Positions 11,735 through 58,945 of a stretch of DNA of 64,000 bases are shown piece by piece (the first letter of the stretch is position 1; each line of letters opens with the position of its first letter). A program made the translations under genes and the position numbers. Under the pieces are notes generated by a model, which worked only from the letters and a program-made list of their open reading frames with translations, searched no databases and had not been told where the DNA came from. This DNA comes from Centroscyllium fabricii (taxonomy: Eukaryota): assembly GCA_051313645.2 (NCBI GenBank), contig JBNRSN020000026.1, positions 70,928,001-70,992,000 on the forward strand. The letters are read 5' to 3'.

Positions 11735-11989
11735 GTGAGTTTAACCTGCATCCCGAGCCGGATCCGAACCACACAGGGTCTGTTTGTTGTGATAACTCAT
11801 GTCAGGAGAAATAGTTTGAAGTTGTCTGTTATTTGTGCAATTAATAGTCACTCTCCGTCAGTATTGATTTGACGGTATTAATTGTTAGTGGGACTCTCTT
11901 CTGTAACTCTTGGGATCATTCCCTGAGACTGTGCAACAGCAAAAGCTCTCTGAACCCTAGAGGGGTAATTCATCCCTGATGGGACCGAG

Positions 11990-14400
11990 AGACTCAGGTC
12001 CAGGGGATAGGCGGAATCGGGGGCTGACTAGATTGGGACATCAATACTGAGGGAGAGGGAGAATCTGATGCTGAGTGAAGAGGTGGGATCAGGCAGTGGG
12101 AGGCTAGAGAAGTTAGTCTGAGGCGAGAGGAGAATCTGGCTCTAAGCGGAGAAAGGAAATGAGAGACTGAAGAGAGGGGGGGGTCTTATACTGAGGGGAG
12201 TGGGTATCAGACTCCGAGAGAGAGAAAGGAATCAAGGTCTCGGGGAGAGAGGGATTCAGACCCTAAGGCGAGGGGGAATCAAATTTGAGGAGGAACTGGA
12301 ATCAGATACTGAGGGGATGGGGAATGAGACACGGAGGGGCAAGAGGAATAATAAAACTGAGTGAAGAGGGGAATTCAGACACTGAGGGGGAGAGGAAATG
12401 GATAACTGGGGAGAAGGTTAATATTAAATGGAGGGGAGATGACACAGACCCTGGGGGGAGGTGGGATCAGACCCCGGGGGCAGGTGGGATCAGACCTTGA
12501 GAGGATGTGGGATCAGACCCTGAGGGGAGATAGGATCAGACCCTGAGGGAGGTAGGATCAGACCCTGAGGGGATGCGGGAACAGACACTGAGGGAGGTGG
12601 GATCAGACACTGGGGGAGAATTGAAACCAGTCACTGTGGAGAAGGGGGTGCTCTAATATTGAGGAGAGATTCAGGACTGAGAAAGAGTGAGAACAAGACC
12701 CTGGAAACTGAGGAAAGAGAGGGAACCAGATATCAATGAGTGAGGGGACGAGGAATCAAACTTTGAGTGGAAGGGGGATTAGACATTGAGGGAAGGGGGA
12801 GATGAGACCTTGTGGAGAGAGAGAGAATCAGATACAGCCCCTGAGGAGAGATGTGCCCTGATATTGAAGGGGAAATGAGAGTCTGAAGGCAGAGGGGAAG
12901 CAATACTGTGGGAAAGTCAGAATGTGATGGTGAGGGAAGAGGGGAATCAGATCTTGTGGGTAGACAGAAATCAAACAATGAGCAGAGAACAGATGAGATA
13001 CTGAGGGGAGAGAGAATTAGACCCTGGTGGGAGGTGGGATCAGACTCTGTGAATCAGTGAATAGAGTGTGAGGGGAGAATGCGAACCAGACACTGTGGAG
13101 AGTGGAAATTATAAACTGAAGCAGTTACAGCAAGTTCTCAACACAGAGGCTCTTGAGTAAACCGAGTGAAATGGGGAGTTTAACCTGCATCCCGAGCCGG
13201 ATCCGAACCACACAGGGTCTGTTTGTTGTGAAAAGCCATATCAGGGGAAATAGATTGGGGGGATTTGTAATTGTATCCAATTAATTGACACCGATTCTCC
13301 TGTTTCCTTTACAAAATATATTTTTGAATGTATTTAGAGTCAGGGGGATGCCCTTCAGTTACACTGGGCATCATTCCCGGATAGTGTCCAACAGCAAAAG
13401 TTCCCTGAACCTAAGAGGGGTAATTAGACCCCCAGTGGAACAGGGGAATCAGACCCTGAGGGGACTGGGAGAATCTGATACCGAGGCCGTGGGGGGGGGG
13501 GTCCGGGTATGTGGGGGGAGGGAAAGGGATTCTCAAGGAAAGGGGGAATCAGATACCGAGGAGAGGAAGGGATTAGAGTCTGAGTGCGGAGAGGGAATCG
13601 GAATCTGGTGCGAGGTGGGATCAAATTCCGAATCAAGGGGGAAATCAGATTTTGGAGGATTTTTAATCAGACACTGAGCAGGGAGCGGGTAAGAGAGTCT
13701 GAGGGGCAAATAGAATCATAAAATGGGGAGATGACAGGGAATCAGACACTGATGGGAGAAATGGAACCGCAACATTGATCAGAGGAGTGGTCTTATATTG
13801 AGGGGAGGTGGAACCAGACCCTGGGGGGAACAGATCACCTACTGTGGGGACAGAGAGAGTCAGACCCTGGGGGCAGGTGGGCTCAGATTTACAGCGAAGG
13901 GAGGGGGCTGGGCGGTGGAAGCAAGGCCGGAGGGTGAATAGAGACCCGCAACTGAGGAGGGGGATATCCTGATATTGCGGAGGGAATCAGGTCGAAGAGA
14001 AAATGGGAAATCGAGACTGGGGAGAGAGGAATCAGAAACAGAGGAGAGAGAGGGAATCAGATATTGAGAAGAGGCAGAATTAACCATTGATTCGGAATCA
14101 GACACTGAGGCGAGGGTGAGGCCCTGACTCGGAATCAGAGCCGGAGGGATGGAGGAGATACTCCCTGTGGAGAGGGGGAATCAGGCACAGAGGGAGGGGG
14201 ATTGAAACACTGAGAGGGAGAATTACATTGAGAGGAAAGTGGGAATCAGCCTTTGGGGGTGATGGGATCTGACTGTGTGTTAAGGAGAGAATCAGATCTG
14301 AGGGGAGCGTGGAACCCAGACACGGAGGGGAGGGGGCTCATTAAATGAGTGAAGAGGGGGAATGTGAGCCTGAGAGGGGAGAAAGGGGAATCGGAGACAA
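11990..14400. repeat. Purine/G-rich degenerate ~22-bp repeat spacer (GAGGGGAG...GAATCAGACACT-like)
   Basis: Repeated gggatcagaccctg / gaatcagacactgagggg motifs with strong purine strand bias. Homologues at ~24400-25500, ~47550-49040 and ~59200-60300. Confidence 0.75.
13121..13425 (+). pseudogene. Third, truncated IFN exon 1/intron 1/exon 2 remnant (unit 1 only)
   Basis: gcagttacagcaagttctcaacacagag...gagtgaaatgGGgagttt (donor GT changed to GG, 1-nt insertion), then orphan-type intron and exon-2-like ggcatcattcccggatagtgt. Confidence 0.8.
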
Positions 14401-18730: not shown

Positions 18731-19012
18731 TGTCACCCTTCAATCTTTTGGCAAGATACTTGATTTCAAAGTTATGTGGGTTGTGATTATTTCTTCTTTC
18801 TGTCATTGAGGCAATTCATCACTTTCTTGCTCTGCATATGATCTGCACCTGGTGAATTTTCTACTTCCTACTTTCAGTCGCACTTACTTTTTTTATCCTC
18901 CCTTCCCCTTTGCTCCCTTGTTACTCACTTCATCCTTGCTTTTGTATATTTATCTCCATTGCTCGATTGTACATTCCCCTCAGGTTCCATTTTCACCTTC
19001 TTCAGTAACAAC

Positions 19013-19454
19013 TGTGTCTCAGTGGGGAACACTCTTGCCTGTGAGTCGGAAGATTGTGGGTTTAAGTCCCACTCCAATGACTTGAGCACAAAATCTCGGC
19101 TGAAGGAGTGCTGCACTGTCGGAGGTGCTGTCTTTCTGATGAAATGTTAAACCGAGGCCCTGTCTGCTCTCTCAGGTGGATGTCAGAGATCCCATGGCAT
19201 TATTGCGAAGTAGCGCACGGGAGTTATCGCCGGTGTCCTGACCAATATTTATCCCTCAATCAACATCAGTCAAAACCGGATGATGTTGTCATTATCACAT
19301 TGCTGTTTGTGGGAGCTTGCTGTGTGTAATTTGGGTGCCGAGTTTCCTACAGTACAACAGTGTCTACACTTTTAATGTGTTTCCTTGGCTGTAAAGCACT
19401 TCGGGACGTGCGGTGGGCGTGAATGGCGCTATAAAAATGCAAGCCTTTCTTTCT
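19013..19454 (+). mobile_element. tRNA-derived Deu-domain SINE (SacSINE1/AmnSINE-like)
   Basis: tRNA-like head (ctcagtgg...gggtttaagtccc), central gagtgctgcactgtcggaggtgc...aaaccgaggccc, L2-type tail gcgctat(a)aaatgcaag. Family assigned from memory. Confidence 0.65.
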
Positions 19455-21578
19455 AACAGGCATGTTACAGATTAAGGATCTTTACCACTTATTCAAACTC
19501 AAGTACACGCACAGGAACTAAGGCTTGTGGCCTAAAATATTATCCCATCTTCCCATGATATTTTATGGGGAGGGCAAATGGGTCAGTTTATTCCCACATT
19601 TGCCCCCTTTGCATTCCCCACCATTCCAGCTTCCGCTCTTCATCCCTCTGTGTTGCACCCACTCACTCGCATCACAATCTCTACCTCTTCTCATTTGAAC
19701 TAGTGACTAGTTTGTGTAATCAGACTGTCGAGTTCACAGAAACAAGACCCGGAATAAATGTCAACATAGGAAGATATAATTGGCAAAAGCAAACTGGAGA
19801 TTTCGCTCGTTTGTGTTGGTTTTTTTCAGCGTAATTCGTCTTAAATCGATGAAACCTGTGCAAATGGTGATGGAAAGTTAAGCGCAAATTACGCCCAGCG
19901 GAAATAAAGTTGCCGCTATTTTTGCACCAGTTTAAGAAACATCACTCTAGGAGCCGGCACCACCCACAAAACTGGCCTCGTCCCTCGGTCCAATTACTCA
20001 CCATCGGGATTTTCTGCTAATTCTGCTCATTTGCTGCCTTCGCGGAGGCTCCAAAAATTAAAATGCTTCTTTTGAAATAAAGACAGACTTGCATTTATGT
20101 AGCGCCTTTCAAACACACCAGACATCTGGTAGCGCTTTACAGCCAATAAATACTTTTTGAACTGTAGTCACCGATGGAATGCAGGTCATTTGGGGGCAAG
20201 GACACTAATAGGCATATATTAAAAACATTTGAATTTATTTTTAACCTTTTTAATTTAATTAGACTCTGACCCCAATATACCCCAATATAACTAACAAAGG
20301 TTTCTGTATCATTTTTAAAAGTCATTTTCAATCATTTAATTTAAAATTGGGTTACTTACAGTTGGTGGATTGAAACAGTGTTTAAATAATGCTTAATTTT
20401 TACATTAACCCGATTTTCAGCTGTATTAATCAAACTGCACCAAGTTACAACTCTTAAATATATCGAGTAATAATTTTAAAGGCAATTTGTTTAAGTTACG
20501 TTTTAAAACGCCGCCCGGTTGCGATGGTTCATCCGAAAGAACAACAGAAAACGCTGGAGAAACTCAGCAGGCCAGGCAGCATCGGTGGAGAGAGAAACAG
20601 AGTTAACAGTTTGTGGAATCTGACCAAGGGAGTCACTTCACTTCAGCTGTGTCTGTGGAAAAAGGACTTTGGTATTTCGAAGCCGGACAGAATTTATACA
20701 TATGCATTGAAAACAAATCCAAATGCACTCTGGCCTGTAAATAAAGGCCATGGCAGTGTTTGCCCAAAATTGGGAAACAGATTAAGAGGGCCATCAAGAT
20801 TGAGTAGGCCCATCGATACCGATTGGAAACAAATCAAGGTTGTTGTCGACCGGTAGCGACGATTACCGGCCAGCCAAAAGTTGTTAACTAGACCACTACC
20901 CTTTGTTAAATTAGCCAGCCAAAGCAAAAGACAAAGAACTGACCTGATTTGGTGGGAGATAAGGGTTTCGTCAGAAATGTATAACTGGGAACCCAGGGTA
21001 GCCATCTGGGGACAATCTTCTCAGCAGCTCTCGTCTCTGGTTCGTCTGTATCGATTTCTAGTTTCTCTGCTCCTGGTTCATGGCAGGTTTTGATTTGAAC
21101 GATTTGCAAATGGAAACTCGAAAGAAATCGCTTCTCAAAACTGGCGCAATTTTGGTAGTGGGATGGTAGGGGGGGCAAAGTAGGCAAAAGTGGGGATAAA
21201 CTGACATATGAAGTTCGACAAAGTGGAAACACTGCCCCAAACATGTGACAGAAAGGTAACATCGGGAAGTCAAGTAATGCAGAAGGATTTGTGCATGAAT
21301 GTAAGATTATTATATATTATAGATTAATGTGCTGATAAGATTCCTTGCTGTTTAACTTTATGTTGTCTACCAGTGTTCTTTAATATTCCACCTTAAATTT
21401 CCATATCTCCTTTTCGTCTCCATTCTAAACTTTTTATAAATCATACAGTTTTATTCGGCATTAGGGTACTATTAACAGCCTCTGCTGCCTCGGCCCGAAG
21501 CTCTGAAATTCCCTGCCTAAATCTCTCTGCCTCTTTACCTCTCTTTCCTCCTATAGACCCTCCTTAAAACCTACTTCT

Positions 21579-22708
21579 CGGAGCTCACAGAGTTGGTGGT
21601 ATTATATTAGCATGGATAGAGAATTGGCTAACTAACAGAAAGCACATGTTGGGGTAAATGGGTAATTTTCTGGTTGGGAAAACATAACTAATGGGGTGCC
21701 ACAGGGATCAGTGCTGGTGCCTCAAATATTTACAATCTACATTAATGATTTGGATGAAGGGTTCGAGGGTAATGTAGCCAGGTTTGCAGATGATACAAAG
21801 ATGGGTGGGGAAGCAAGTTGTGCAGAGGACTCCAAGAATCTGCAAAGGGATATAGACAGGCTAAGCGAGTGGGCAAAGAGTTGGCAGATGGAGTATAATG
21901 TGGGAAAGTGCGAGGTTATCCACTTTGGCAGGAAAAATAAAAAAGCTAATTATTATTTAAATAAAGAGAGATTACAAAATGCTACAGTTCAGAGGGACCT
22001 GGGGGTCCTTTTGCATGAAACACAAACAGTTAGCAGCAGGTGCAGCAAGTAATCAAAAAGGTAAATGGAATGTTGGCCTTTATTTCAAGGAGGTTGGAAT
22101 ATAAAAGCAGGGAAGACCTGCTACAACTGTACAGGGTATTGGTGAGGCCACACCTGGAGTACAATTTTCGTCTCCTAATTTAAGGAAGGTATACTTGCAT
22201 TGGAGGCAGTTCAGAGTCAATTCACTCGGGTAATTCCAGAGGTGAGGGGGTTTTCTTATGAGGAAAGGTTGAGCAGGTTGGGCCGATACACTTTGGAGAT
22301 TAGAAGAATGAGAGGTGATCTTATCGAAACATATAAGATACTGAGGGGGCTCGACAGGGTAGAAGCTGAGAGGATGTTTCCCCTCGTGGGGGAATCTAGA
22401 ACTCGGGGGCACAGTCTCAGAATAAAGAGTCGCCCTTTTAGAACTGAGATGAGGAGGAACTTCCTCTCTCTGAGGGTCGTAAATCTGTGGAATTCTCTGC
22501 CCCAGAGAGCCGTGGAGGCTGGGTCATTAAACACATTTAAGGTGGAGATAGACACATTTTTGCAAGATGAGGGAGTGAAGGGTTATGGGGAGCAGGCTGG
22601 GAAGTGGCTTTGAGCCCAAGATCAGCCATGATCTTATTGAATGGTGAAGCAGGCTCGAGGGGCCAAGAGGCCCATTCCTGCTCCTATTTCTTATGTTCTG
22701 ATGTTCTT
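21579..22708 (+). mobile_element. 5'-truncated CR1 LINE inserted into an L2 3' end
   Basis: PQGSVL, FADDTK, RPHLEY and RMRGDLIETYKI motifs with a (TATGTTC)-type tail. Flanks (ccttaaaacctacttct | ctttgaccaagct...gcgctatataaatgcaag) form a continuous L2-like 3' end. Confidence 0.85.
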
Positions 22709-23270
22709 GGGTAATTCTTTGACCAAGCTCCCGGACACCTGCCCTAATTTATCTTTATGTGACTCGGTGTCAATTTTTCTGTCTTAAAACACTCCCGGGA
22801 AGCGCCTTGTGACGTTTTACTATCGTTAAAGGCGCTATATAAATGCAAGTTGTTTTTGCTGTTGTTGTAAGCATTATTTTAAATTTCAGTTTTCCTCTGA
22901 GCTCTCGCTCTCACCGTTTACCCCGCCCACCAACCTTGCATGGCCAATGAAATGTGCCGAAACAAAATGAATTGGTTTTTACAAACCTTTATCTCTTTAA
23001 ATTGCTGCAATACGATTGTTTAACTGAATCACTCTCTGCCGCTGTCTCCAGCTGGTGCCCGTGGGATCTCAGTCCCAGGTACACTCGGAGGGAAGTTACT
23101 GTTCGCAATTAGAGCTGAGAGTGATTTGACGATATTCCCGGTGTAACCGGGGCTCTCCCGGAGATCCCAAACCTTTTCCCAGCTCCCGCTCCCCCTCTCA
23201 CTCTGACCCGTGCTGTGTCCAAACCCTCCGCACTTTCGGAAATGACAAAACTCCTCACTTTCCCGGAGAC

Positions 23271-23778
23271 ACTTTCGCTTTCGGGTGTATTTGACAAAGC
23301 TCATTTCCACCGAGAAACTGACTCGGACACTTTCCCGGGAAAGAGACCAGAAAAACAGGATGAAAGAAAAGACAGCGGGACCCCCTTCGGACTCAGTGTG
23401 GGAACGGATTAAATATTCTTCAAAAACCGAGTCTGAAAATGACTCCAGAAAACACCCAGGAAGGGACAACCTTAAAGAGCAGAGTCTCCGACAGGTGAAT
23501 CCGGGGGAGACAGTCGGCATCAGGCGGTGCCCCTGGGCTGTGAGCCGGGGTCTCTCCAATGTCCACACTCCCCCAATACAGACCCCACCCCCCTCGACAC
23601 CAGCTCAGGGCCCCGGGGATCCCAGTCCACACAACCCGGAGCTGGTGCTGATCTCCCAGCGGGGATTTTCCAGCCTCTGGTTCCGGAATCTCCAGCTTTT
23701 GGATTCCTTACCTCAGAAAGAAAGCGGACAAACACCTGTAACTTTTCCAAACCTCCTGCGGTCCGATTTCACTTTTCC
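23271..23778 (+). promoter_or_regulatory. Distal IFN promoter, unit 2 (ISRE 23271-23282, NF-kB 23662-23671, IRF-E 23767-23778)
   Basis: Same motifs as 10861-11373. Confidence 0.65.
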
Positions 23779-24007
23779 AATGTAATGGTCCACATTAAAG
23801 CCGGCAGCGCGGCAGTGAGAGCTCCCACAGTGTCGAGCCGCTCACACACTCCACCCGGCAACACAGGCGCTCGCTCCCGGATCACAAGCGGCTGCATTTC
23901 GACTTCCAGAGTTTCATTCGGTGAACAGGAACCGTTTTCTGAGCTGAATCCGGATCCGCTGGGTTTTTGACGCTTCAGATCGGTGCTTTATCCGGGCTCG
24001 GTCCAGC

Positions 24008-24139
24008 ATGGCTTTGGCGAGTGTTTGGAGATGTTGGATTGTGTTGGTCTTGTTGCCCGGGACCCTGAGTCTGGGCTGTGAGAGGCTGCAGTTACAGCAA
24101 GTTCTCAACACAGAGACTCTGAGCAAACTGAGTGAAATG
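24008..24139 (+). other. Orphan copy of IFN exon 1, unit 2
   Basis: Intact ATG, 44 codons and GTGAGT donor; decayed exon 2 downstream. Confidence 0.85.
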
Positions 24140-25710
24140 GTGAGTTTAACCCGCATCCCGAGCCGGATCCGAACCACACAGGGTCTGTTTGCTGTGATAA
24201 CTCATGTCAGGAGAAACAGTTTGAAGTTGTCTGTTATTTGTGCAATTAATAGTCACTCTCCGTCAGTATTGATTTGACGGTATTAATTGTTAACGGGATT
24301 CTCTTCTGTAACTCTTGGGATCATTCCCTGAGACTGTGCAACAGCAAAAGCTCTCTGAACCCTAGAGGGGTAATTCATCCCTGATGGGACCGAGAGACTC
24401 AGGTCCAGGGGACAGGCGGAATCAGGGGCTGACTAGATTGGGACATCAATACTGAGGGAGAGGGAGAATCTGATGCTGAGTGAAGAGGTGGGATCAGGCA
24501 GTGGGAGGCGAGGGAAGTTAGTCTGAGGCTAGAGGAGAATCTGGCTCTAAGCGGAGAAAGGAAATGAGAGACTGAAGAGAGTGGGGGTCTTATACTGAGG
24601 GGAGTGGGTATCAGACTCCGAGAGAGAGAAAGGAATCAAGGCTTCAGGGAGAGAGGGATTCAGACCCTAAGGCGAGGGGGAATCAAATTTGTGGAGGAAC
24701 TGGAATCAGATACTGAGGGGATGGGGAATGAGACACTGAGGGGCAAGAGGAATCTTAAAACTGAGTGAAGAGGGGAATTCAGACACTGAGGGGGAGAGGA
24801 AATGAAAAACTGGGGAGAAGGATAATATTAAATGGAGGGGAGATGACACAGACAATGGGGGGAGGTGGGATCAGTCACTCGCGGGAGGTGGGATCAGACC
24901 CTGGGGGAGAATTGACACCAGACGCTGAGGGGAAGGGGTGGTTTAATATTCAGGGGAGAATCAGGACTGAGAGAGAGTGAGAACAAGATCCTGAATCTGA
25001 GGAAAGAGAGGGAACCAGATATCGACGAGTGAGGGGACGAGGAATCAGACTTTGAGTGGAGGGGGGGATGAGACCCTGTGGAGAGGGAGGATCAGATACA
25101 GGGGGGAGGGGTATCAGCCCCTGAAGAGAGATGTGCCCTGATATTGAAGGGGAAATGAGAGTCTGAGGGCCGAGGGGAAGCAATACTGTGGGAAAAGGCA
25201 GAATGTGATGGTGAGGGAAGAGGGGAATCAGATCTTCTGGGTAGACAGAAATCAAACTTTGAGCGGCGAACAGATGAGATACTGAGGGGAGAGAGAGAGT
25301 CGGACCCTGGTGGGAGGTGGGATCAGACTCTGTGAATCAGTGAATAGAGTGTGAGGGGAGAATGCGAACCAGACACTGTGGAGAGTGGAAATTATAAACT
25401 GAAGCCCGAGGATCAGAAACTGAGGGAAGAAGGACAATGAGACACTGAGGAAAGTGGGGGATGTGAGCTGAGAGGGGAAAGGGGTATTAGAGACCACCAT
25501 CAATCAATCTACCCGTCTGCCCCCTTAGTGCCCCCGTGATGCGAGTCCATACATTTTGGAGAAACCAGTAAGATTTTCAAAATCCATATTGATAATATTG
25601 ATACAAATTACTGGACATTGAGCTGGCATGGGCTCGACGGGCCGAGTGGCCTGTTTCTGCGCTGTAACCATTCTATGTTTCAATGAACCTGTGGTTGTGA
25701 TCTTCTAACG

Positions 25711-25833
25711 GGGATTTTCCAGTCGCTGGTTCAGGAATCTCCAGCTTTTGGATTCCTTACCTCAGAAAGGAGGCGCACAAACTATTGCTTCCCTGCAGCT
25801 CTTCCAACACTCCTCCATCCCGATTTCACTTTT
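25711..25833 (+). promoter_or_regulatory. Proximal IFN promoter, gene 2 (NF-kB 25711-25720, IRF-E 25824-25833)
   Basis: GGGATTTTCC and TTTCACTTTT. Confidence 0.65.
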
Positions 25834-26061
25834 GGATTGTAATGGCCACATCGCCAATCCCTCCTCTTATAGTGGGAGCTCCCACAGTGTCCAGCCGCTC
25901 ACACACACTCCACAACACAACTGGTCGCTCCCGGAGCACAAGCGGCTGTATTTCGACTTCCAGAGTTTAATTCGGTGAACAGGAACCGTTTTCTGAGCTG
26001 AATCCGGATCCACTGGGTTTCTAACCCTTCAGATCGGTGCTTTACCCTGGCTCGGTCCAGC

Positions 26062-28355
26062 ATGGCTTTGGCGAGTGTTTGGAGATGTTGGATTGTGTTG
26101 GTCTTGTTGCCCGGGACCCTGAGTCTGGGCTGTGAGAGGCTGCAGTTACAGCAAGTTCTCAACACAGAGACTCTGAGCAAACTGAGTGAAATGGTGAGTT
26201 TAACCTGCATCCCGAGCCGGATCCGAACCATCTACTTTGTGCTCCTTGTGGAAAGTTATATCAGGAGAACATGTTTGTGGTGTTTGTAATTTGACACAAT
26301 TAATAGGCAGCGATGTTCCAGTATTTCAGTGGGGCTGATTGTAACACTGACTGTCTGCTCCACTCAGGGCGGCCCCTTTCCCCGACAGTGTGTAAGAGAG
26401 AGGCTCCGACTGAAAACCAAGCCCTTGAATCTGGTGAAACTTTCAGAGGGATTACAGGTGAGTGAACTCTATTTCATTTGACTTTATTCAAACAAAAGTT
26501 TAATACAAAGCATGAGTAAGATAAACAAGCTGATCAGAATTTTAATCAGGAAATTTAAATCCAGTGTTAGTTGCCCATTGAAGTTAAAATGCCAGTCGAG
26601 CCATTCACTCACTCTGTGTCACTCTCTCTAACTAGCTCTCTCTCTAACTAGCTCACTCTCTAACTAGCTCACTCTCTCCAACTAGCTCACCCTCTCTAAC
26701 TAGCTCTCTCTCTCTAACTAGCTCCCTCTCTCTAACTAGCTCCCTCTCTCTAACTAGCTCAATCTCTCTAACTAGCTCACTCTCTCTAACTAGCTCACCC
26801 TCTCTAACTAGCTCACTCTCACTAACTAGCTCCCTCTCTGTAACTGGCTCCCTCTCTCTAACTAGCTCACTCTCTCTAACTAGCTCACTCTCTCTAAATA
26901 GCTCACCCTCTCTAACTAGCTCCCTCTCTCTAACTAGCTCACCCTCTCTAACTAGCTCCCTCTTTGTAACTAGCTCACTCTCTCTTACTATTTCACTCTC
27001 TCTAACTAGCTCAATCTCTCTAACTAGCTCACTCTCTCTAACTAGCTCACTCTCTCTAACTAGCTCCCTCTCTCTAACTAGCTCACTCTCTCTAACTAGC
27101 TCACTCTCTCTAACTAACTCCCTTTCTCTAACTAGCTCACTCTCTCTATCTCACCTATTATCTCACTCCCATTAACTACTAACTCCCTCTAATCATCTCA
27201 CACCCTCTATTCATTGAAACCCCGCTAATCTTCCATTCTCCTCCCTAGATGATCGCACCCATCCTTTGACTATCCTTTTACTATTTCATAGAATTAGAGA
27301 ATGGTTCCCGCACATAAGGAGGCCATTCGGCCCATCGAGCCAGTGCCGGCTCTCTGCAAGAACACTTCAGCTAGTCCCGCTCCACCGCCCTTTCCCCGTG
27401 GCCCTGCCATTTTTTCAGGAATTTAACCAATTCCCTTTTGAAACCCACAAATCTTTTTATGCTTCTAAAACACATTTGGGAGCCCTTTAATATCCCCCAC
27501 TAATCTATTCCATACATTCTCTTTGAACCTCATTGCCCTTTTCAGTTGTTCTTCACACTTTCTGCATTCAGCTTGGTTCTCTACTGTATTATAAGCTTAA
27601 CTTTGGTCATAAGCCTCCTTTAGCTGTTTCATTGAAATCTCCACCTTCAGTGATCCGGGGAGAGATAGCTTTGCATGCCCTGCCTTTCCCCTGGTGCGAA
27701 TGTGTCTAGACTGCACCCAAACCATCTTCTCTTTCAAGGCTGTCCATTGTATATTTTCTATTTCACCTGCAAATCCTAGATTCCAATACACTGGAATGAG
27801 CCCTCCTCCAGTTGACTATTGTCACTTGTGATTGATGCTTGTCCTTTTCCATAACTGCTCGAAACCTAAAAAGGGACAGGTCCCCTCTAACGACCTTGTG
27901 TGTATTGTGCACAGACCCAGGACAGGATCCAGATTGTCCATCAAACACTGCATCACCTCACCAAGATCTACAGCATGAACCCGGGCTCAGTCACATGGCT
28001 CCGGGACAAGGTGGAAAACTTCCGTCTTCTCCTGGATCGGCAGCTCGGGGAGCTGGAAGAATGTGTCAGGAAACCGGGAACAGAGTCCAGGCCCAGGAGA
28101 ATCGCCTCAATTCACAAATACTTTAAAAAACTGAGAAAGTTTCTCAAACAGAAGGTGGGACAATTGATATTTTACTGAGATTACTGACACTTTAAGTCAC
28201 CCGATTTAAACCTGTTCATTCTCTAATAGATTTTCCTGAATATTTCTCTTTCTCAGAGATTCAGTGACTGCGCCTGGGAAATAATCCGCGCTGAGACCAG
28301 GGCCCGATTACAACAGATCCTTTTCATAACGGCAAAAATCAGAAGAAGAAACTGA
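26062..28355 (+). CDS. ifn: Type I interferon, copy 2 (186 aa); exons 26062-26193, 26368-26457, 27915-28154, 28257-28355
   Basis: Intact splice sites and frame; CAWE motif; carries the MNPGSVTWLRD variant. Confidence 0.93.
26619..27150. repeat. 18-bp intron-2 minisatellite, gene 2
   Basis: (CTCACTCTCTCTAACTAG)n with variant units. Confidence 0.95.
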
Positions 28356-30209
28356 AGACTTTTCAAAGACATGTTTCGTACAGACTGGGAACAAAGAATA
28401 TTTATTTAAAAGACCGCCTATTTTTTTTTTATAATTATATTTTAACTTATTATCTTGTTGTAATATCGCGATTGGGTGCAAGGTGACTGATGGAGGACAA
28501 GGACTGTCTTGATATTGATCCATGTTGGATCATTTATTTGAATTTATTGATGGTTATTGCTGTGACAGTTGCCTGTGATGAAATGTTAGAGCTTTGACTG
28601 GGGCGAGTCTGAGGAAAATCCTGTCTCTGTCCCTTCCTTCAGGGACTGGCAGCTGCGACAGTGAAAAGTTTCATCTCAGGTTCGCTCTGTGGGACACCTT
28701 ATTCCACTCGCTGCTTTCCCAGTGTCGGCTCTCTGGACTGACCCACCCGGCTGAAGCTACCTTTTGTCCCTCATTTCATCAGAATTGAGTCAAGTTTATT
28801 GCTGGACACAATAAAATGTTGCAGATTTTTCATAACGTGTAAAGTCAAAAATGAGAAGAGGTAACGGAAGATGTCTCAATGACATGTTTAACACAGACTG
28901 AGAACAATGAGCTATTTTAAAGACCTCGAATTTTAAAATGTATATATTTTAATATCTGTAACGTATTGCTAATTTTAGACTGTTGTCAGCTTGGCTCAGA
29001 GGTAATACTCTAAGTCAGAAGGTTCTGGCTCCAAACCCCACTCCCAAATGAAATCTTTTATTTCCATTCAACTTTATGAGGCTCCTTATTCCAGTCGCTG
29101 AACTTCCAGTGACAACTCTCTGCACTGGGAATGCCCGGCCAATACTCAGCTCTGTCACTGGCTTTCATGGCACTGATTGGCTCTCGATGGTCGGGTTGCG
29201 GAACAATGACCCATGACCTGATCCCTGACCTGCACTGACCGTTACATTTCTGCTCTCCCAGCGGCCAACACTCCAACTCGTCCCGGGTATTCCTAATTTA
29301 TTGATATTTATAGTTGTGATGTCTTCTACAATGTGTTAAATGAGTTCAGAAAGAACTGTTAATTTATTAATATTTATTCAGATTTGGGGAACAATGTTTT
29401 TCTACACTGGAAACTTTTTATAAAGAATGAGAACATGTTGGTGTAAATAAATTGTTTACAATATTACATTTTTATTGGAGTCATATTAGTTTCTCATTTG
29501 AATCTGTCAGTTTTCCAGACTCACTATAAATGTTCTGGATTGCTCTGCCTGCTGCCTCTGACTGGCATTCCCTCTCCGCTCGATTCCCCACTGGCTGATA
29601 TTTCCTCGCCTGTCAAAATTGTGAATCCAGTTTGAACCCAATTGACTCGATATTCATGGGGAGGGGACTGAGAGGAGAGTGGCAGTGAAAATCTTTTATA
29701 TGGCACCTAATCATGCGCCTTCTGCAAAGCTGTATCTTTAACACTGACTGTATCCCTTTAGCTTTATATGTGAGCTTCTTGAAAACTCAGTAGAATTATT
29801 CAAGCACCAGGTGATCTTTACAGATTCATGGTGACTGTCCCTAATGAGCCAATGTCTTTCCACCTGTTCACTAATTTCATCCCAGACTATGGACTCCATA
29901 ATTTTACCCACAGCTCAGGTAAGGCTAAAAGCGATATAATTTTGTCACCCTTCAATCTTTTGGCAAGATACTTGATTTCAAACTTATGTGGGTTGTGATT
30001 ATTTCTTCTTTCTGTCATTGAGGCAATTCATCAGTTTCTTGCTCTGCATATGATCTGCACCTGGTGAATTTTCTACTTCCTACTTTCAGTCGCACTTACT
30101 TTTGTTTATCCTCCCGTCCCCTTTGCTCCCTTGTTACTCACTTCATCCTTGCTTTTGTATATTTATCTCCATTGCTCGATTGTACATTCCCCTCAGGTTC
30201 CATTCTTCA

Positions 30210-36200: not shown

Positions 36201-36839
36201 ATGATCTTATTGAATGGCGGAGCAGGCTCGAGGGGCCGAGAGGCCCATTCCTGCTCCTATTTCTTATGTTCTGATGTTCTTATGTAATTCTTTGAACAGG
36301 CTCCCGGACACCTGCCCTAATTTATCTTTATGTGACTCGGTGTCAATTTTTCTGTCTTAAAACACTCCCGGGAAGCGGCTTGTGACGTTTTACTATGTTA
36401 AAGGCGCTATATAAATGCAAATTGTTTTTGCTGTTGTTGTAAGCATTATTTTAAATTTCAGTTTTCCTCCAAGCTCTCCCTCTCACCGTTGACCACGCCC
36501 ACCAACCTTGCATGGCCAATGAAATGTGCCGAAACAAAATGAAATGGTTTTTACAAACCTTTATCTCTTTAAATTGCTGCAATACGATTGTTTAACTGAA
36601 TCACTCTGCGGTGTCTCCAGCTGGTGCCCGTGGGATCTCAGTCCCAGGTACACTCGGAGGGAAGTTACTGTTCGCAGTTACAGCTGAGAGTGATTTGACG
36701 ACATTCCCTGTGTAACCGGGGTTCTCCCGGAGATCCCAAACCTTTTCCCAGCTCCCGCTCCCCCTCTCACTCTGACCCGTGCTGTGTCCAAACCCTCCGC
36801 ACTTTCGGAAATGACAAAACTCCTCACTTTCCCGGAGAC

Positions 36840-37345
36840 ACTTTCGCTTTCGGGTGAATTTGACACAAAGCTCATTTCCACCGAGAAACTGACTCGGACA
36901 CTTTCCCGGGAGAGAGACCAGAAAAACAGGATGAAAGAAAAGGCAGCGGGACCCCCTTCGGACTCAGAGTGGAAACAAATTAAATATTCTTCAAAAACCG
37001 AGTCTGAAAATGACTCCAGAAAACACCCAGGAAGGGACATCCTTAAAGAGCAGAGTCTCCGACAGGTGAATCCGGGGGAGACAGTCGGCATCAGGCGGTG
37101 CCCCTGGGCTGTGAGCCGGGGTCTCTCCAATGTCCACACTCCCCCAATACAGACCCCCCCTCGACACCAGCTCAGGGCCCCGGGGATCCCAGTCCACACA
37201 ACCCGGAGCTGGTGCTGATCTCCCAGCGGGGATTTTCCAGCCTCTGGTTCCGGAATCTCCAGCTTTTAGATTCTTTACCTCAGAAAGAAAGCGGACAAAC
37301 TCCGGTAACTTTTCCAAAACTCCTGCGGCCCGATTTCACTTTTCC
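36840..37345 (+). promoter_or_regulatory. Distal-type promoter directly upstream of gene 3 (ISRE 36840-36851, NF-kB 37229-37238, IRF-E 37334-37345)
   Basis: Upstream sequence matches the orphan/distal type, not the proximal type. Confidence 0.7.
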
Positions 37346-37574
37346 AATGTAATGGTCCACATTAAAGCCGGCAGCGCGGCAGTGAGAGCTCCCACAGTGT
37401 CGAGCCGCTCACACACTCCACCCGGCAACACAGGCGCTCGCTCCCGGATCACAAGCGGCTGCATTTCGACTTCCAGAGTTTCATTCGGTGAACAGGAACC
37501 GTTTTCTGAGCTGAATCCGGATCCGCTGGGTTTCTGACAACTCCGATCGGTGCGTTACCCGGGCTCGGTCCAAC

Positions 37575-39814
37575 ATGGCTTTGGCGAGTGTTTGGAGATG
37601 TTGGATTGTGTTGGTCTTGTTGCCCGGGACCCTGAGTCTGGGCTGTGAGAGGCTGCAGTTACAGCAAGTTCTCAACACAGAGACTCTGAGCAAACTGAGT
37701 GAAATGGTGAGTTTAACCTGCATCCCGAGCCGGATCCGAACCATCTACTTTCTGCTCCTTGTGGAAAGTTATATCAGGAGAACATGTTTGTGGTGTTTGT
37801 AATTTGACACAATTAATAGGCAGCGATGTTCCAGTATTTCAGTGGGGCTGATTGTAACACTGACTGTCTGCTCCACTCAGGGCGGCCCCTTTCCCCGACA
37901 GTGTGTAAGAGAGAGGCTCCGACTGAAAACCAAGCCCTTGAATCTGGTGAAACTTTCAGAGGGATTACAGGTGAGTGAACTCTATTTCATTTGACTTTAT
38001 TCAAACAAAAGTTTAATACAAAGCACGAGTAAGATAAACAAGCTGATCAGAATTTTAATCAGGAAATTTAAATCCAGTGTTAGTTGCCCATTGAAGTTAA
38101 AATGCCAGTCGAGCCATTCACTCACTCTGTGTCACTCTCTCTAACTAGCTCTCTCTCTAACTAGCTCACTCTCTAACTAGCTCACTCTCTCTAACTAGCT
38201 CACCCTCTCTAACTAGCTCTCTCTCTCTAACTAGTTCCCTCTCTCTAACTAGCTCCCTCTCTCTAACTAGCTCAATCTCTCTAACTAGCTCACTCTCTCT
38301 AACTAGCTCACCCTCTCTAACTAGCTCACTCTCACTAACTAGCTCCCTCTCTGTAACTGGCTCACTCTCTCTAACTAGCTCACTCTCTCTAACTAGCTCA
38401 CTCTCTCTAAATAGCTCACCCTCTCTAACTAGCTCCCTCTCTCTAACTAGCTCACCCTCTCTTACTAGCTCCCTCTTTGTAACTAGCTCACTCTCTCTTA
38501 CTATCTCACTCTCTCTAACTAGCTCAATCTCTCTAACTAGCTCACTCTCTCTAACTAGCTCACTCTCTCTAACTAGCTCACTCTCTCTAACTAGCTCACT
38601 CTCTCTATCTCACCTATTATCTCACTTCCATTAACTACTAACTCCCTCTAATCATCTCACACCCTCTATTCATTGAAACCCCTCTAATCTTCCATTCTCC
38701 TCCCTAGATGATCGCACCCATCCTTTGACTATCCTTTTACTATTTCATAGAATTAGAGAATGGTTCCCGCACATAAGGAGGCCATTCGGCCCATCGAGCC
38801 AGTGCCGGCTCTCTGCAAGAACACTTCAGCTAGTCCCGCTCCACCGCCCTTTCCCCGTGGCCCTGCCATTTTTTCAGGAATTTAACCAATTCCCTTTTGA
38901 AACCCACAAATCTTTTTATGCTTCTAAAACACATTTGGGAGCCCTTTAATATCACCCACTAATCTATTCCATACATTCTCTTTGAACCTCATTGCCCTTT
39001 TCAGTTGTTCTTCACACTTTCTGCATTCAGCTTGGTTCTCTACTGTATTATAAGCTTAACTTTGGTCATAAGCCTCCTTTAGCTGTTTCATTGAAATCTC
39101 CACCTTCAGTGATCCGGGGAGAGATAGCTTTGCATGCCCTGCCTTTCCCCTGGTGCGAATGTGTCTAGACTGCACCCAAACCATCTTCTCTTTCAAGGCT
39201 GTCCATTGTATATTTTCTATTTCACCTGCAAATCCTAGATTCCAATACACTGGAATGAGCCCTCCTCCAGTTGACTATTGTCACTTGTGATTGATGCTTG
39301 TCCTTTTCCATAACTGCTCGAAACCTAAAAAGGAACAGGTCCCCTCTAACGACCTTGTGTGTATTGTGCACAGACCCAGGACAGGATCCAGATTGTCCAT
39401 CAAACACTGCATCACCTCACCAAGATCTACAGCATGAACCTGGGCTCAGTCACATGGCCCCGGGACAAGGTGGAAAACTTCCGTCTTCTCCTGGATCGGC
39501 AGCTCGGGGAGCTGGAAGAATGTGTCAGGAAACCGGGAACAGAGTCCAGGCCCAGGAGAATCGCCTCAATTCACAAATACTTTAAAAAACTGAGAAAGTT
39601 TCTCAAACAGAAGGTGGGACAATTGATATTTTACTGAGATTACTGACACTTTAAGTCACCCGATTTAAACCTGTTCATTCTCTAATAGATTTTCCTGAAT
39701 ATTTCTCTTTCTCAGAGATTCAGTGACTGCGCCTGGGAAATAATCCGCGCTGAGACCAGGGCCCGATTACAACAGATCCTTTTCATAACGGCAAAAATCA
39801 GAAGAAGAAACTGA
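37575..39814 (+). CDS. ifn: Type I interferon, copy 3 (186 aa); exons 37575-37706, 37881-37970, 39374-39613, 39716-39814
   Basis: Intact splice sites and frame; CAWE motif; chimeric promoter. Confidence 0.93.
38132..38610. repeat. 18-bp intron-2 minisatellite, gene 3
   Basis: Directly visible. Confidence 0.95.
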
Positions 39815-41678
39815 AGACTTTCCAAAGACATGTTTCGTACAGACTGGGAACAAAGAATATTTATTTAAAAGACCGCCTATTTATTTTTTTTAATTATATT
39901 TTAACTTATTATCTTGTTGTAATATCGCGATTGGGTGCAAGGTGACTGATGGAGGACAAGGACTGTCTTGATATTGATCCATGTTGGATCATTTATTTGA
40001 ATTTATTGATGGTTATTGCTGTGACAGTTGCCTGTGATGAAATGTTAGAGCTTTGACTGGGGGCGAGTCTGAGGAAAATCCTGTCTCTGTCCCTTCCTTC
40101 AGGGACTGGCAGCTGCGACAGTGAAAAGTTTCATCTCAGGTTCGCTCTGTGGGACACCTTATTCCACTCGCTGCTTTCCCAGTGTCGGCTCTCTGGACTG
40201 ACCCACCCGGCTGAAGCTACCTTTTGTCCCTCATTTCATCAGAATTGAGTCAAGTTTATTGCTGGACACAATAAAATGTTGCAGATTTTTCATAACGTGT
40301 AAAGTCAAAAATGAGAAGAGGTAACGGAAGATGTCTCAATGACATGTTTAACACAGACTGAGAACGATGAGCTATTTTAAAGACCTCGAATTTTAAAATG
40401 TATATATTTTAATACCTGTAACGTATTGCTCATTTTAGACTGTTGTCAGCTTGGCTCAGAGGTAATACTCTAAGTCAAAAGGTTCTGGCTCCAAACCCCA
40501 CTCACAAATGAAATCTTTCATTTCCATTCAGCTTTATGAGGCTCCTTATTCCAGTCGCTGAACTTCCAGTGACAACTCTCTGCACTGGGAATGCCCGGCC
40601 AATACATTGGCTTTCATGGCACTGATTGGCTCTCGATGGTCGGGTTGCGGAACAATGACCAATGACCTGATCCCTGACCTGCACTGACCTTTCCATTTCT
40701 GCTCTCCCAGCGGCCAACACTCCAACTCGTCCCGGGTATTCCTAATTTATTGATATTTATAGTTGTGATGTTTTCTACAATGTGTAAAGTGGGTTCAGAA
40801 AGAACTGTTAATTTATTCATATTTATTCAGATTTGGGGAATATATAATGTTTTTCTACACTGGAAACTTTTTATACTGAATGAGAACATGTTGGTGTAAA
40901 TAAATTGTTTACAATATAACATTTTTATTGGAGTCATATTTATTTCTCATTTGAATCTGTCAGTTTTCCAGACTCACTAGAAATGCTCTGGATTGCTCTG
41001 CCTGCTGCCTCTGACTGGCATTCCCTGTCCGCTCGATTCCCCACTGGCTGATATTTCCTCGCTTGTCAAAATTGTGAATCCATTTTGAACCCAATTGGCT
41101 CAATATTCATGGGGAGGGGACTGAGAGGAGAGTGGGAGTGAAAGTCTTTTATATGGCACCTAATCATGCACCTTCTGCAAAGCTGTATCTTTACCACCGA
41201 CTGTATCCCTTTAGCTGTATATGTGAGCTTCTTGAAAACTCAGTAGAATTATTCAAGCACCAGGTGATCTTTACAGATTCATGGTGACTGTCCCTAATGA
41301 GCCAATGTCTTTCGAACTGTTCACTAATTTCATCCCAGACTATGGTCTCCATAATTTTACCCACAGCTGAGGTAAGGCTAAAAGGGATATAATTTTTGTC
41401 ACCCTTCAATCTTTAGGCAAGATACTTGATTTCAAACTTATGTGGGTTGTGATTATTTCTTCTGTCTGACATTGAGTCAATTCATCACTTTCTTGCTCTG
41501 CGCATGATCTGCACCTGGTGAATTTTCTACTTCCTACTTTCAGTCGCACTTACTTTTTTTAACCTCCCTTCCCCTTTGCTCCCCTGTTACTCACTTCATC
41601 CTTGCTTTTGTATATTTATCTCCATTGCTCTGTTGTACATTCCCCTCAGGTTCCATTTTCACCTTCTTCAGTAACAAC

Positions 41679-53015: not shown

Positions 53016-53315
53016 ATAGAATCATAGAATCCCTACAGTGCAGATAGAGGCCATTTTGGCCCATCAAGCCTGCACCGACACATATCCCACCCTATCCCCG
53101 TAACCCCACATATTTAATCCACCTAACACTAAGGGCCAATTTATCCTGGCCAATCAACCTAACCCGCACATCTTTGGACTGTGGGAGGAAACCGGAGCAC
53201 CCGGAGGAAACCCACGCAGACACGGGGAGAATGTGCAAACTCCACACAGATAGTACCCGAGGCTGGATTTGAACCCGGGCCCCTGGCGCTGTGAGGCAAC
53301 AGTGCCACCGTGCAG
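53016..53315 (-). mobile_element. HE1/V-SINE-like SINE, unit-specific, TSD CCTTC
   Basis: V-domain-like tgtgggaggaaaccggagcacccggaggaaacccacgcagacacggggagaatgtgcaaactccacacag, B-box (ggttcaaatcc on minus) and (ATTCTATG) tail. CCTTC at 53011-53015 and 53316-53320; empty site gcaccttctgcaaag in other units. Confidence 0.85.
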
Positions 53316-53818
53316 CCTTCTGCAAAGCTGTACCTTTAACACTGACTGTATCCCTTTAGCTGTATATGTGAGCTTCTTGAAAACTCAGTGAATTATTGAA
53401 GCACCAGGCGATCTTTACAGATTCATGGTGACTGTCCCTAATGAGCCAATGCCTTTCCAACTGTTCACTAATTTCATCCCAGACTATGGACTCCATAATT
53501 TTACCCACAGCTCAGGCAAGGCTAAAAGGGATATAATTTTGTCACCCTTCAATCTTTAGGCAAGATACTTGATTTCAAACTTATGTGGGTTGTGATTATT
53601 TCTTCTTTCTGTCATTGAGGCAATTCATCACTTTCTTGCTCTGCGTATGATCTGCACCTGGTGAATTTTCTACTTCCTACTTTCAGTCGCACTTTTGTTT
53701 ATACTCCCGTCCCCTTTGCTCCCTTGTTACTCACTTCATCCTTGCTTTTGTATATTTATCTCCATTTCTCGATTGTACATTCCCCTCAGGTTCCATTTTC
53801 ACCTTCTTCAGTAACAAC

Positions 53819-54260
53819 TGTGTCTCAGTGGGGAACACTCTTGCCTGTGAGTCGGAAGATTGTGGGTTTAAGTCCCACTCCAATGACTTGAGCACAAAAT
53901 CTAGGCTGAAGGAGTGCTGCACTGTCGGAGGTGCTGTCTTTCTGATGAAATGTTAAACCGAGGCCCTGTCTGCTCTCTCAGGTGGATGTCAGAGAGCCCA
54001 TGGCATTATTGCGAAGTAGCGCACGGGAGTTATCGCCGGTGTCCTGACCAATATTTATCCCTCAATCAACATCAGTCAATACCGGATGATGTTGTCATTA
54101 TCACATTGCTGTTTGTGGGGGCTTGCTGTGTGTAATTTGGGTGCCGAGTTTCCTACATTACAACAGTGTCTACACTTTTAAAGTGTTTCATTGGCTGTAA
54201 AGCACTTCGGGATGTGCGGTGGGTGTGAATGGCGCTATATAAATGCAAGTCTTTCTTTCT
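53819..54260 (+). mobile_element. Deu-domain SINE copy, unit 4
   Basis: Paralogue of 19013-19454. Confidence 0.65.
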
Positions 54261-56386
54261 AACAGAGGCATGTTACAGATTAAGGATCTTTACCACTTAT
54301 TCAAACTCAAGTACACGCACAGGAAGTAAGGCTTGTGGCCTAAAATATTATCCCATCTTCCCATGATATTTTATGGGGAGGGCAAATGGGTCAGTTTATT
54401 CCCACATTTGCCCCCTTTGCATTCCCCACCATTCCAGCTTCCGCTGTTCATCCCTCTGTGTTGCACCCACTCACTCGCATCACAATCTCTACCTCTTCTC
54501 ATTTGAACTAGTGACTAGTTTGTGTAATCAGACTGTCGAGTTCACAGAAACAAGACCCGGAATAAATGTCAACATAGGAAGATATAATTGGCAAAAGCAA
54601 ACTGGAGATTTCGCTCGTTTGTGTTGGTTTTTTTCAGCGTAATTCGTCTTAAATCGATGAAACCTGTGCAAATGGTGATGGAAAGTTAAGCGCAAATTAC
54701 GCCCAGCGGAAATAAAGTTGCCGCTATTTTTGCACCAGTTTAAGTAACATCACTCTAGGAGCCGGCACCACCCACAAAACTGGCCTCGTCCCTCGGTCCA
54801 ATTACTCACCATCGGGATTTTCTGCTAATTCTGCTCATTTGCTGCCTTCGCGGAGGCTCCAAAAATTAAAATGCTTCTTTTGAAATAAAGACAGACTTGC
54901 ATTTATGTAGCGCCTTTCAAACACACCAGACATCTGGTAGCGCTTTACAGCCAATAAATACTTTTTGAACTGTAGTCACCGATGGAATGCAGGTCATTTG
55001 GGGGCAAGGACACTAATAGGCATATATTAAAAACATTTGAATTTATTTTTAACCTTTTTAATTTAATAAGACTCTGACCCCAATATACCCCAATATAACT
55101 AACAAAGGTTTCTGTATCATTTTTAAAAGTCATTTTCAATAATTTAATTTAAAATTGGGTTACTTACAGTTGGTGGATTGAAACAGTGTTTAAATAATGC
55201 TTAATTTTTACATTAACCCGATTTTCAGCTGTATTAATCAAACTGCACCAAGTTACAACTCTTAAATATATCGAGTAATAATTTTAAAGGCAATTTGTTT
55301 AAGTTACGTTTTAAAACGCCGCCCGGTTGCGATGGTTCATCCGAAAGAACAACAGAAAACGCTGGAGAAACTCAGCAGGCCAGGCAGCATCGGTGGAGAG
55401 AGAAACAGAGTTAACAGTTTGTGGAATCTGACCAAGGGAGTCACTTCACTTCAGCTGTGTCTGTGGAAAAAGGACTTTGGTATTTCGAAGCCGGACAGAA
55501 TTTATACATATGCATTGAAAACAAATCCAAATGCACTCTGGCCTGTAAATAAAGGCCATGGCAGTGTTTGCCCAAAATTGGGAAACAGATTAAGAGGGCC
55601 ATCAAGATTGAGTAGGCCCATCGATACCGATTGGAAACAAATCAAGGTTGTTGTCGACCGGTAGCGACGATTACCGGCCAGCCAAAAGTTGTTAACTAGA
55701 CCACTACCCTTTGTTAAATTAGCCAGCCAAAGCAAAAGACAAAGAACTGACCTGATTTGGTGGGAGATAAGGGTTTCGTCAGAAATGTATAACTGGGAAC
55801 CCAGGGTAGCCATCTGGGGACAATCTTCTCAGCAGCTCTCGTCTCTGGTTCGTCTGTATCGATTTCTAGTTTCTCTGCTCCTGGTTCATGGCAGGTTTTG
55901 ATTTGAACGATTTGCAAATGGAAACTCAAAAGAAATCGCTTCTCAAAACTGGCGCAATTTTGGTAGTGGGATGGTAGGGGGGGCAAAGTAGGCAAAAGTG
56001 GGGATAAACTGACATATGAAGTTCGACAAAGTGGAAACACTGCCCCAAACATGTGACAGAAAGGTAACATCGGGAAGTCAAGTAATGCAGAAGGATTTGT
56101 GCATGAATGTAAGATTATTATATATTATAGATTAATATGCTGATAAGATTCCTTGCTGTTTCACTTTATGTTGTCTACCAGTGTTCTTTAATATTCCACC
56201 TTAAATTTCCATATCTCCTTTTCGTCTCCATTCTAAACTTTTTATAAATCATACAGTTTTATTCGGCATTAGGGTACTATTAACAGCCTCTGCTGCCCCG
56301 GCCCGAAGCTCTGAAATTCCCTGCCTAAATCTCTCTGCCTCTTTACCTCTCTTTCCTCCTATAGACCCTCCTTAAAACCTACTTCT

Positions 56387-57514
56387 CGGAGCTCACAGAG
56401 TTGGTGGTATTATATTAGCATGGATAGAGAATTGGCTAACTAACAGAAAGCACATGTTGGGGTAAATGGGTAATTTTCTGGTTGGGAAACCATAACTAAT
56501 GGGGTGCCACAGGGATCAGTGCTGGTGCCTCAACTATTTACAATCTACATTAATGATTTGGATGAAGGGTTCGAGGGTAATGTAGCCAGGTTTGCAGATG
56601 ATACAAAGATGGGTGGGGAAGCAAGTTGTGCAGAGGACTCCAAGAATCTGCAAAGGGATATAGACAGGCTAAGCGAGTGGGCAAAGAGTTGGCAGATGGA
56701 GTATAATGTGGGAAAGTGCGAGGTTATCCACTTTGGCAGGAAAAATAAAAAAGCTAATTATTATTTAAATAAAGAGAGATTACAAAATGCTACAGTTCAG
56801 AGGGACCTGGGGGTCCTTTTGCATGAAACACAAACAGTTAGCAGCAGGTGCAGCAAGTAATCAAAAAGGTAAATGGAATGTTGGCCTTTATTTCAAGGAG
56901 GTTGGAATATAAAAGCAGGGAAGACCTGCTACAACTGTACAGGGTATTGGTGAGACCACACCTGGAGTACAATTTTCGTCTCCTAATTTAAGGAAGGTAT
57001 ACTTGCATTGGAGGCAGTTCAGAGTCAATTCACTCGGGTAATTGCAGAGGTGAGGGGGTTTTCTTATGAGGGAAGGTTGAGCAGGTTGGGCCGATACTCT
57101 TTGGAGATTAGAAGAATGAGAGGTGATCTTATCGAAACATATAAGATACTGAGGGGGCTCGACAGGGTAGAAGCTGAGAGGATGTTTCCCCTCGTGGGGG
57201 AATCTAGAACTCGGGGGCACAGTCTCAGAATAAAGAGTCGCCCTTTTAGAACTGAGATGAGGAGGAACTTCCTCTCTCTGAGGGTCGTAAATCTGTGGAA
57301 TTCTCTGCCAGAGAGCCGTGGAGGCTGGGTCATTAAATACATTTAAGGTGGAGATAGACACATTTTTGCAAGATGAGGGAGTGAAGGGTTATGGGGAGCA
57401 GGCTGGGAAGTGGCTTTGAGCCCGAGATCAGCCATGATCTTATTGAATGGCGGAGCAGGCTCGAGGGGCCAAGAGGCCCATTCCTGCTCCTATTTCTTAT
57501 GTTCTGATGTTCTT
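56387..57514 (+). mobile_element. CR1 fragment (near-identical to 21579-22708)
   Basis: Same sequence at an offset of ~34.8 kb. Confidence 0.85.
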
Positions 57515-58813: not shown

Positions 58814-58945
58814 ATGGCTTTGGCGAGTGTTTGGAGATGTTGGATTGTGTTGGTCTTGTTGCCCGGGACCCTGAGTCTGGGCTGTGAGAGGCTGCAGTTA
58901 CAGCAAGTTCTCAACACAGAGACTCTGAGCAAACTGAGTGAAATG
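58814..58945 (+). other. Orphan copy of IFN exon 1, unit 5
   Basis: Intact ATG, 44 codons and GTGAGT donor. Confidence 0.85.

Follow-up and report, generated by a model that had tools for sequence, protein, structure and literature searches.

How one gene of a tandem interferon array came to carry, upstream of its start codon, a type of sequence that elsewhere in the array precedes a different copy of exon 1 is the question raised by a locus of the shark Centroscyllium fabricii. Self-comparison of the window (the whole 64-kb stretch of DNA that was analyzed) revealed a tandem array of five units extending from 10454 to the window end. Each unit has one gene with four exons, 186 codons, and three GT-AG introns, and the reading frame is open in all five. 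The interferon alpha/beta domain (PF00143) was detected in exon 3 (E-value 6.8e-11, 43 bits, cut-off 26.8); exon 4 taken alone matched it under the cut-off (E-value 7.4e-5), and exons 1 and 2 gave no match to this domain. Exon 3 matched 47 proteins with 58–89% identity, all from sharks or rays and 46 of them named interferon-like, the closest being those of Pristiophorus and Heptranchias (84–89%). By domain and exon layout, the five genes are cartilaginous-fish type I interferon (IFN) genes, which have four exons and a fused exon 3 according to the available text of PMC5332411. The shark IFNs that we retrieved fall into two subtypes by exons 1 and 2 (LGC.. vs. QDC/QGC..) with very similar exon 3, and all five genes of the window belong to the first subtype. 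In exon 3 of genes 2 and 5 (27915–28154 and 62721–62960), L>P and P>L replacements are found within the motif MNLGSVTWP, whose common residues are kept by gene 3 and by many of the retrieved shark and ray IFNs.

Nine copies of exon 1 are present in the window, five of which lead genes and four of which lead an upstream module, hereafter D. In units 1, 2, 4, and 5, module D (promoter, exon 1, and diverged intron 1) precedes the gene's own promoter, hereafter P. The positions of the features are given in table 1.

Table 1. Features of gene 3 and of the units compared with it (positions are counted from the first base of the window)
Feature	Position	Strand	Remarks
Decayed exon-2 remnant behind exon 1 of D in unit 1 (D1)	11910..11999	+	Acceptor AG lost; frameshifts and stops
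Unit 2 reference for the stretch absent from gene 3	24008..26061	+	D exon 1, D intron, exon-2 remnant, G-rich 23-bp-repeat spacer, P promoter
Gene 3 upstream region and 5'UTR (D-type)	36436..37574	+	Identity to D1/D4 98.0/97.9%, to D2/D5 97.0/97.2%
IRF/ISRE-like cluster	36801..36905	-	Five GAAAG[T/C] cores, one GAAANNGAAA; near -775..-675
NF-kB-like site	37229..37238	+	Predicted; common to D and P
Proximal IRF-element-like site	37334..37343	-	Predicted; common to D and P
Weak TATA-like element	37360..37367	+	D-specific; putative function
D-to-gene junction interval	37540..37743	.	37562-37743 if the donor was of unit-2/5 type
Gene 3 exon 1	37575..37706	+	44 aa; N-terminus signal-peptide-like
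Gene 3 intron 1	37707..37880	+	GT..AG; gene-type from 37744
Unit-2/5-like tract of gene 3	37744..40400 (end approximate)	+	About 2.7 kb; 99.5% like units 2/5
Gene 3 exon 2	37881..37970	+	
VNTR in intron 2 of gene 3	38132..38607	+	18-bp repeat, 26.7 copies
Gene 3 exon 3	39374..39613	+	PF00143; gene-3-specific H/L/P/T haplotype
Gene 3 exon 4 and stop	39716..39814	+	

A second, longer repeat was observed in the window: 18501–29194 and 53311–64000 are 99.35% identical across 10.7 kb (about 99.8% past the first 1.2 kb), with a period of 34.8 kb that equals units 2, 3, and 4 together. It may reflect a recent duplication of three units, a long conversion, or a falsely duplicated haplotype, and a second copy of gene 3 could lie beyond the window. 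Outside the array, a LINE retrotransposon, which we take to be Tx1-like, occupies 2546–8663 on the minus strand and encodes a zinc knuckle, an endonuclease, and a reverse transcriptase, each in its own frame; it is flanked by 96–98% identical pieces of another repeat (393–2480 and 9506–9952).

The preliminary description of this DNA had regarded gene 3 as an intact gene whose upstream sequence is of the distal type and whose first intron is of the gene type. We aligned the nine copies of exon 1 and used as diagnostic the columns that tell the four copies of D apart from the four of P. Between -375 and -1, 68 of the 69 diagnostic columns carry the D allele in gene 3, the exception (37319) being a change private to gene 3 among D copies; between +1 and +300, gene 3 has the gene (P) allele at all 60. 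The last upstream and first downstream diagnostic columns are 37539 and 37744. Across all nine copies, identity is 97–100% over exon 1 plus the first 37 bases of intron 1; between D and P, it falls from 98.5–100% in exon 1 to 88–91% in the UTR and 72% in the proximal promoter on one side, and to about 53% in the intron beyond +169 on the other. A D-type 5'UTR motif joined to a gene-type intron-1 motif matched the window only once (37520–37748) and none of 100 shuffled sequences. The start codon at 37575, the four exons, the GT/AG sites, and the 186-aa frame all proved sound, so both parts of that description hold. Its copy-specific marks are also unique among the five genes: the H/L/P/T combination in exon 3 (39411, 39441, 39459, and 39538-9) and the A at 37573 (ccaacATG). 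The exon 3 markers fall within a single 49-base stretch, which makes copy-specific RNA-seq feasible. Compared with the other four units, 2054–3295 bp are missing from gene 3; the "about 2 kb" given earlier was right as to the absence and lies at the low end of this range.

To understand what was joined to gene 3, we analyzed the nature of module D. Behind D exon 1 lies a sequence that can be aligned with intron 1 and exon 2 of the gene, up to the exon-2 donor, with a score of 103.5 (31 ± 5 and at most 48.5 in 300 shuffles) and a global identity of 65.1% (142/218). Considering this alignment and the loss of the exon-2 acceptor and frame, D is best described as a decayed duplicate of the 5' end of the gene, not a bare promoter. 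The supposed "orphan intron" is thus truly absent from gene 3 but is really a diverged paralogue of intron 1 with a decayed exon 2. Similarly, the fusion of a distal promoter to the gene body was correct as a hybrid structure, whereas a role of D as a distal promoter in units 1, 2, 4, and 5 is putative. No homology was found between the D–P spacer and intron 2 or exons 3–4, and tblastn revealed no remnants of exons 2–4 in the spacer of unit 1. A possible descent of D from the second shark IFN subtype was considered as well: in a frameshift-tolerant comparison, D scored 22.9 against that subtype (eight type-B peptides) versus 19.4 against type A (24 peptides), and the best shuffled sequences came close to both scores.

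In each of the four D modules, exon 1 codes for the complete 44-aa leader and has a GT donor. Divergence between D and P outside exon 1 and the UTR is 28–47%, versus 3–5% between units; gene conversion would hold the two exons 1 in the near-identical state that was observed. Upstream of P, faint similarity to D beyond -370 was detected, which was significant in unit 2, borderline in unit 4, and absent in unit 1. The D–P interval has been rearranged repeatedly, as shown by the varying distance between the D and P start codons (3295 bp in unit 1, 2443 bp in unit 4, and 2054 bp in units 2 and 5) and by an extra fragment in unit 1. This fragment (13121–13475), found in unit 1 only, contains the 3' half of exon 1 and a D-type intron/exon-2 remnant with 78% identity to D1. 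The P upstream region of unit 1 also differs by 22% from those of units 2, 4, and 5.

The two sides of the join have different relatives. Upstream, gene 3 agrees with units 1/4 at 14 of 15 informative sites and with units 2/5 at none (one site is other); downstream, it agrees with units 2/5 at 36 of 43 sites and with units 1/4 at seven. Fisher's exact test of this switch gave a P-value of 1.5e-8, which is overstated since the sites are linked. In phylogenetic trees, the body of gene 3 grouped with units 2/5 (support 100/99) and its promoter with unit 1 (83/88), the promoter tree being unrooted and nearly star-like. Over the unit-2/5-like tract, gene 3 has 8 and 11 differences in 2107 bases to units 2 and 5, whereas units 1 and 4 differ from it at 66 and 74. 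The nesting with units 2/5 is confined to this 2.7-kb tract (in a tree without a rooted outgroup), and identity drops to 95–97% beyond approximately 40400. By these site patterns, gene 3 is a mosaic of a unit-1/4-like promoter and a unit-2/5-like body over a limited tract. Because such a promoter meets such a body, and the latter ends near 40400, one clean deletion would be insufficient; the mosaic points to either ectopic recombination or conversion between units, or a deletion with later conversion. The earlier proposal of an unequal crossover or deletion in the exon-1 tract is therefore supported in that the origin is recombinational and the join lies inside the homogenized tract, and needs revision in that a single simple deletion gives way to an event involving a second unit. 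Gene 3 is not a copy of another unit, since it has its own flanks (95–97% identical to the others), its own VNTR, and a normal number of private sites in the promoter (nine, one of which is multi-allelic). Its VNTR has the same unit order as in units 2/5, but 26.7 copies versus 29.7 and private variants; the copy numbers across the five units are 26.8, 29.7, 26.7, 16.7, and 29.7.

Taken together, gene 3 is probably a real and derived hybrid, that is, an intact gene for a secreted type I IFN under D control. D exon 1 would have paired with the exon 1 of a gene through the direct repeat of about 180–200 bp, and recombination would have removed the D intron, the G-rich spacer, and the P promoter. 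Within this reading, we tentatively favor a single gap-repair or double-crossover event with a unit-2/5-type gene as template, which would have entered in exon 1 and left near 40400. Somewhat less probable is an older deletion on which a conversion involving gene 3 and unit 2 would later have been superimposed. With five copies, the body exchange may be read in either direction.

It is quite improbable that the junction is an assembly misjoin, in which the assembly would have jumped from D exon 1 to gene exon 1 over the identical stretch and unit 3 would in truth be an ordinary D–spacer–P unit. The join does lie inside a tract identical among copies, with the nearest gene 3 markers (37573 and 37752) 179 bases apart. 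We examined contigs from 4 of 20 matching sequencing runs, X1 and X2 being the two best-matching ones of the four; among the 20, none was listed as an RNA run of this species, which says nothing for or against expression. No contig of the four runs bridges the gene 3 junction, the shared exon-1 tract (37628–37743) being collapsed into one contig, and several private alleles were not seen: contigs of neither X1 nor X2 show the gene-3-only alleles at 37040, 37541, and 37573, and the one at 37554 is missing in X1. These contigs drop variants; those of X1 also lack the alleles at 36977-8, though three of five D copies carry them. The main D contigs of both X1 and X2 appear to have the gene-3-only allele at 36677, as judged from the count, since they show only one other letter, at 36610. 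The body/exon-1 ratio of contig depth was 0.31–0.32, compared with predictions of 0.44 for the window as is, 0.39 with gene 3 collapsed, and 0.36 without gene 3; the D/exon-1 ratio was 0.52 and 0.50 in X1 and 0.45 and 0.47 in X2. None of five depth models fits all ratios, contig depth not being equal to copy number, and the as-is model fits no better than the others. Only 20% of the 31-mers of gene 3 are private, so that the overall share of matching words in the runs (0.83–0.84) says little, and the junction pattern had no match in metagenome contigs, a collection that is not of sharks. Against a misjoin, the window is free of N and resolves five units of 95–99.8% identity with distinct VNTR lengths, which implies long reads that would easily cross 180 bp. 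Moreover, after a false switch into unit 2 or 5, the assembly would have to switch again at 40400, and neither the 8–11 differences nor the private VNTR would result.

If gene 3 were ancestral, it would never have carried the block of D intron, spacer, and P promoter, which would have been inserted once in the other units before their radiation; the body of gene 3 would have been converted later by unit 2. The unrooted and nearly star-like promoter tree is compatible with this view, and so is a relative, organism D, whose contigs (guessed to be RNA) show the splice from 37705 to 37880 between exons 1 and 2 (GT..AG), an intron 1 of the gene type (about 89%), and a 5' piece aligned without clipping across 37426–37437, where P-type pieces are clipped, with the D allele at 37525. 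The same piece, however, has the P allele at 37539. In addition, D and P occur together in four of five units. Their divergence (28–47%) far exceeds that between units, and organism B holds both types, its contigs including a D-type promoter at approximately 98–99% and a P-type loose end at 37438; these two observations indicate that the D–P arrangement predates the array. An ancestral gene 3 is therefore very improbable. The contig of organism D gives a weak hint that the D-type 5' sequence is nearer to that of the ancestral gene. A rather unlikely extension, suggested by the IRF/ISRE cluster and the higher CpG number of D, is that D started out as the promoter of the gene. When the 5' end was duplicated internally long ago, the IRF/ISRE upstream sequence would have stayed with the first copy and the body of the gene with the second, and gene 3 would be a reversion that collapsed this duplication and restored the ancestral pairing of promoter and gene. 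Standard units, having two interchangeable first exons matched by conversion, would make the same secreted interferon from both.

The ISRE block reported in the distal-type upstream region was confirmed as an IRF/ISRE-like cluster that is present in all D modules and in no P upstream region. Five IRF-type cores were observed where 0.43 were expected, a count that none of 2000 shuffles reached, though both the window and the motif had been picked after looking. The kB-like and IRF-like sites were called with what we take to be their consensus motifs, and strict TATAWAW is absent from both promoter types. Since the kB-like and IRF-like sites are retained in D and the IRF/ISRE cluster occurs there only, gene 3 is reasonably likely to be virus-inducible under D.

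Independently of origin, it is conceivable, if somewhat unlikely, that D is a truncated and dead paralogue, with conversion alone keeping its exon 1 intact, so that gene 3 would be weak or silent by promoter capture. The D promoter varies little among units 1, 2, and 4 (15/597 sites vs. 123/1995 neutral, P-value = 0.0002), and the dead D intron is equally invariant (6/232, P-value = 1.0); thus, conversion explains this invariance as well as selection does. This equality, the destroyed exon 2 of D, and the lack of a strict TATA box fit a dead module, whereas the retained kB-like and IRF-like sites, the cluster found in D alone, the higher number of CpG in -365..-1 (23–26 in D vs. 15–17 in P), the lower variation of D in the proximal promoter (5/180 vs. 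14/170, P-value = 0.03), and the presence of an ISRE-block paralogue in organisms A and B all speak against it. Polarity of CpG decay was also counted (3–4 vs. 0–2 events), the counts being too few to use. The low variation of the D promoter was not taken as proof of purifying selection, the dead D intron being equally invariant.

Contigs of organisms A and B contain the paralogue of the ISRE block (cf. 36800–36925) at about 90% identity with other flanks. Its contig depth is similar to that of module D, it is absent from the window, and other IFN genes possibly have it in their promoters. The promoter and 5'UTR of P (e.g., 25734–26060) also contain several pyrimidine-rich, acceptor-like AG sites that could intercept splicing from D exon 1; splicing from D to exon 2 in standard units would have to skip these sites, so that the use of D exon 1 as an alternative first exon is putative.

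The preliminary description had also treated the expression of gene 3 as a direct test of D and its silence as a refutation of D function. Gene 3 is not the only such test: a transcript that reaches 37385–37539 would reveal its promoter type in any unit because D and P differ there at 15 diagnostic columns. Its silence would not strictly refute D either, since the gene 3 promoter has private changes at 37274, 37304, and 37319, between the kB-like and IRF-like sites.

Hybrid genes are common in tandem immune arrays, and the gene 3 event represents a well-known mechanism. In humans, the CYP11B1/CYP11B2 chimera and the CYP21A1P/CYP21A2 hybrids arise by unequal crossover between tandem paralogues (PMC8750845 among others). 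Such hybrids put the promoter of one paralogue on the coding body of the other, and in the CYP21A1P/CYP21A2 hybrids the gene is lost by promoter capture. They are human alleles with a known phenotype, whereas the donor in gene 3 is a 5'-half duplicate from within the repeat unit itself and the protein is not altered. The chicken BG genes, as far as described in the available text of PMC4046983, are tandem immune genes with two promoter/5'UTR classes, in which unequal crossing-over or deletion generates hybrids and the 5' end sets expression. Gene 3 resembles them in its tandem immune setting, two 5' classes, and recombination-made hybrid. Unlike in BG, where both classes head complete and expressed genes (PMC4046983), D heads a truncated remnant of putative activity.

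Type I IFNs undergo birth-death evolution (PMC6640115, available text), and the shark array is similar to the cartilaginous-fish IFNs described in PMC5332411 in having four exons and three introns, 186 aa, and a tandem cluster. The duplicated promoter/exon-1 module in each unit and the hybrid copy are features of this array that the available text of that account does not describe. In teleosts, two promoter regions lie upstream of the intron-containing type I IFN gene IFNa/IFNphi1, and the upstream transcript lacks a signal peptide and gives an intracellular IFN (PMC5127012; PMC5332411). In contrast, shark D exon 1 encodes a full, near-identical signal peptide in all four D copies, so that D could give solely the same secreted protein. 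No study of shark interferon promoters was found in the literature searched, most subscription journals being outside its coverage.

With two promoter types on one protein, the array offers a natural test of which control region drives these genes, and the copy-specific markers in one 49-base stretch of exon 3 would aid such a test. If D is the main or ancestral promoter, this antiviral family would change its regulation by exon-1-mediated exchange of modules, and the array would be a shark counterpart of the two-promoter system of teleosts, albeit with another outcome. If gene 3 is indeed a reversion, the array may tune interferon regulation through gain and loss of a promoter/exon-1 module (3295, 2443, 2054, and 0 bp) while the protein stays unchanged.
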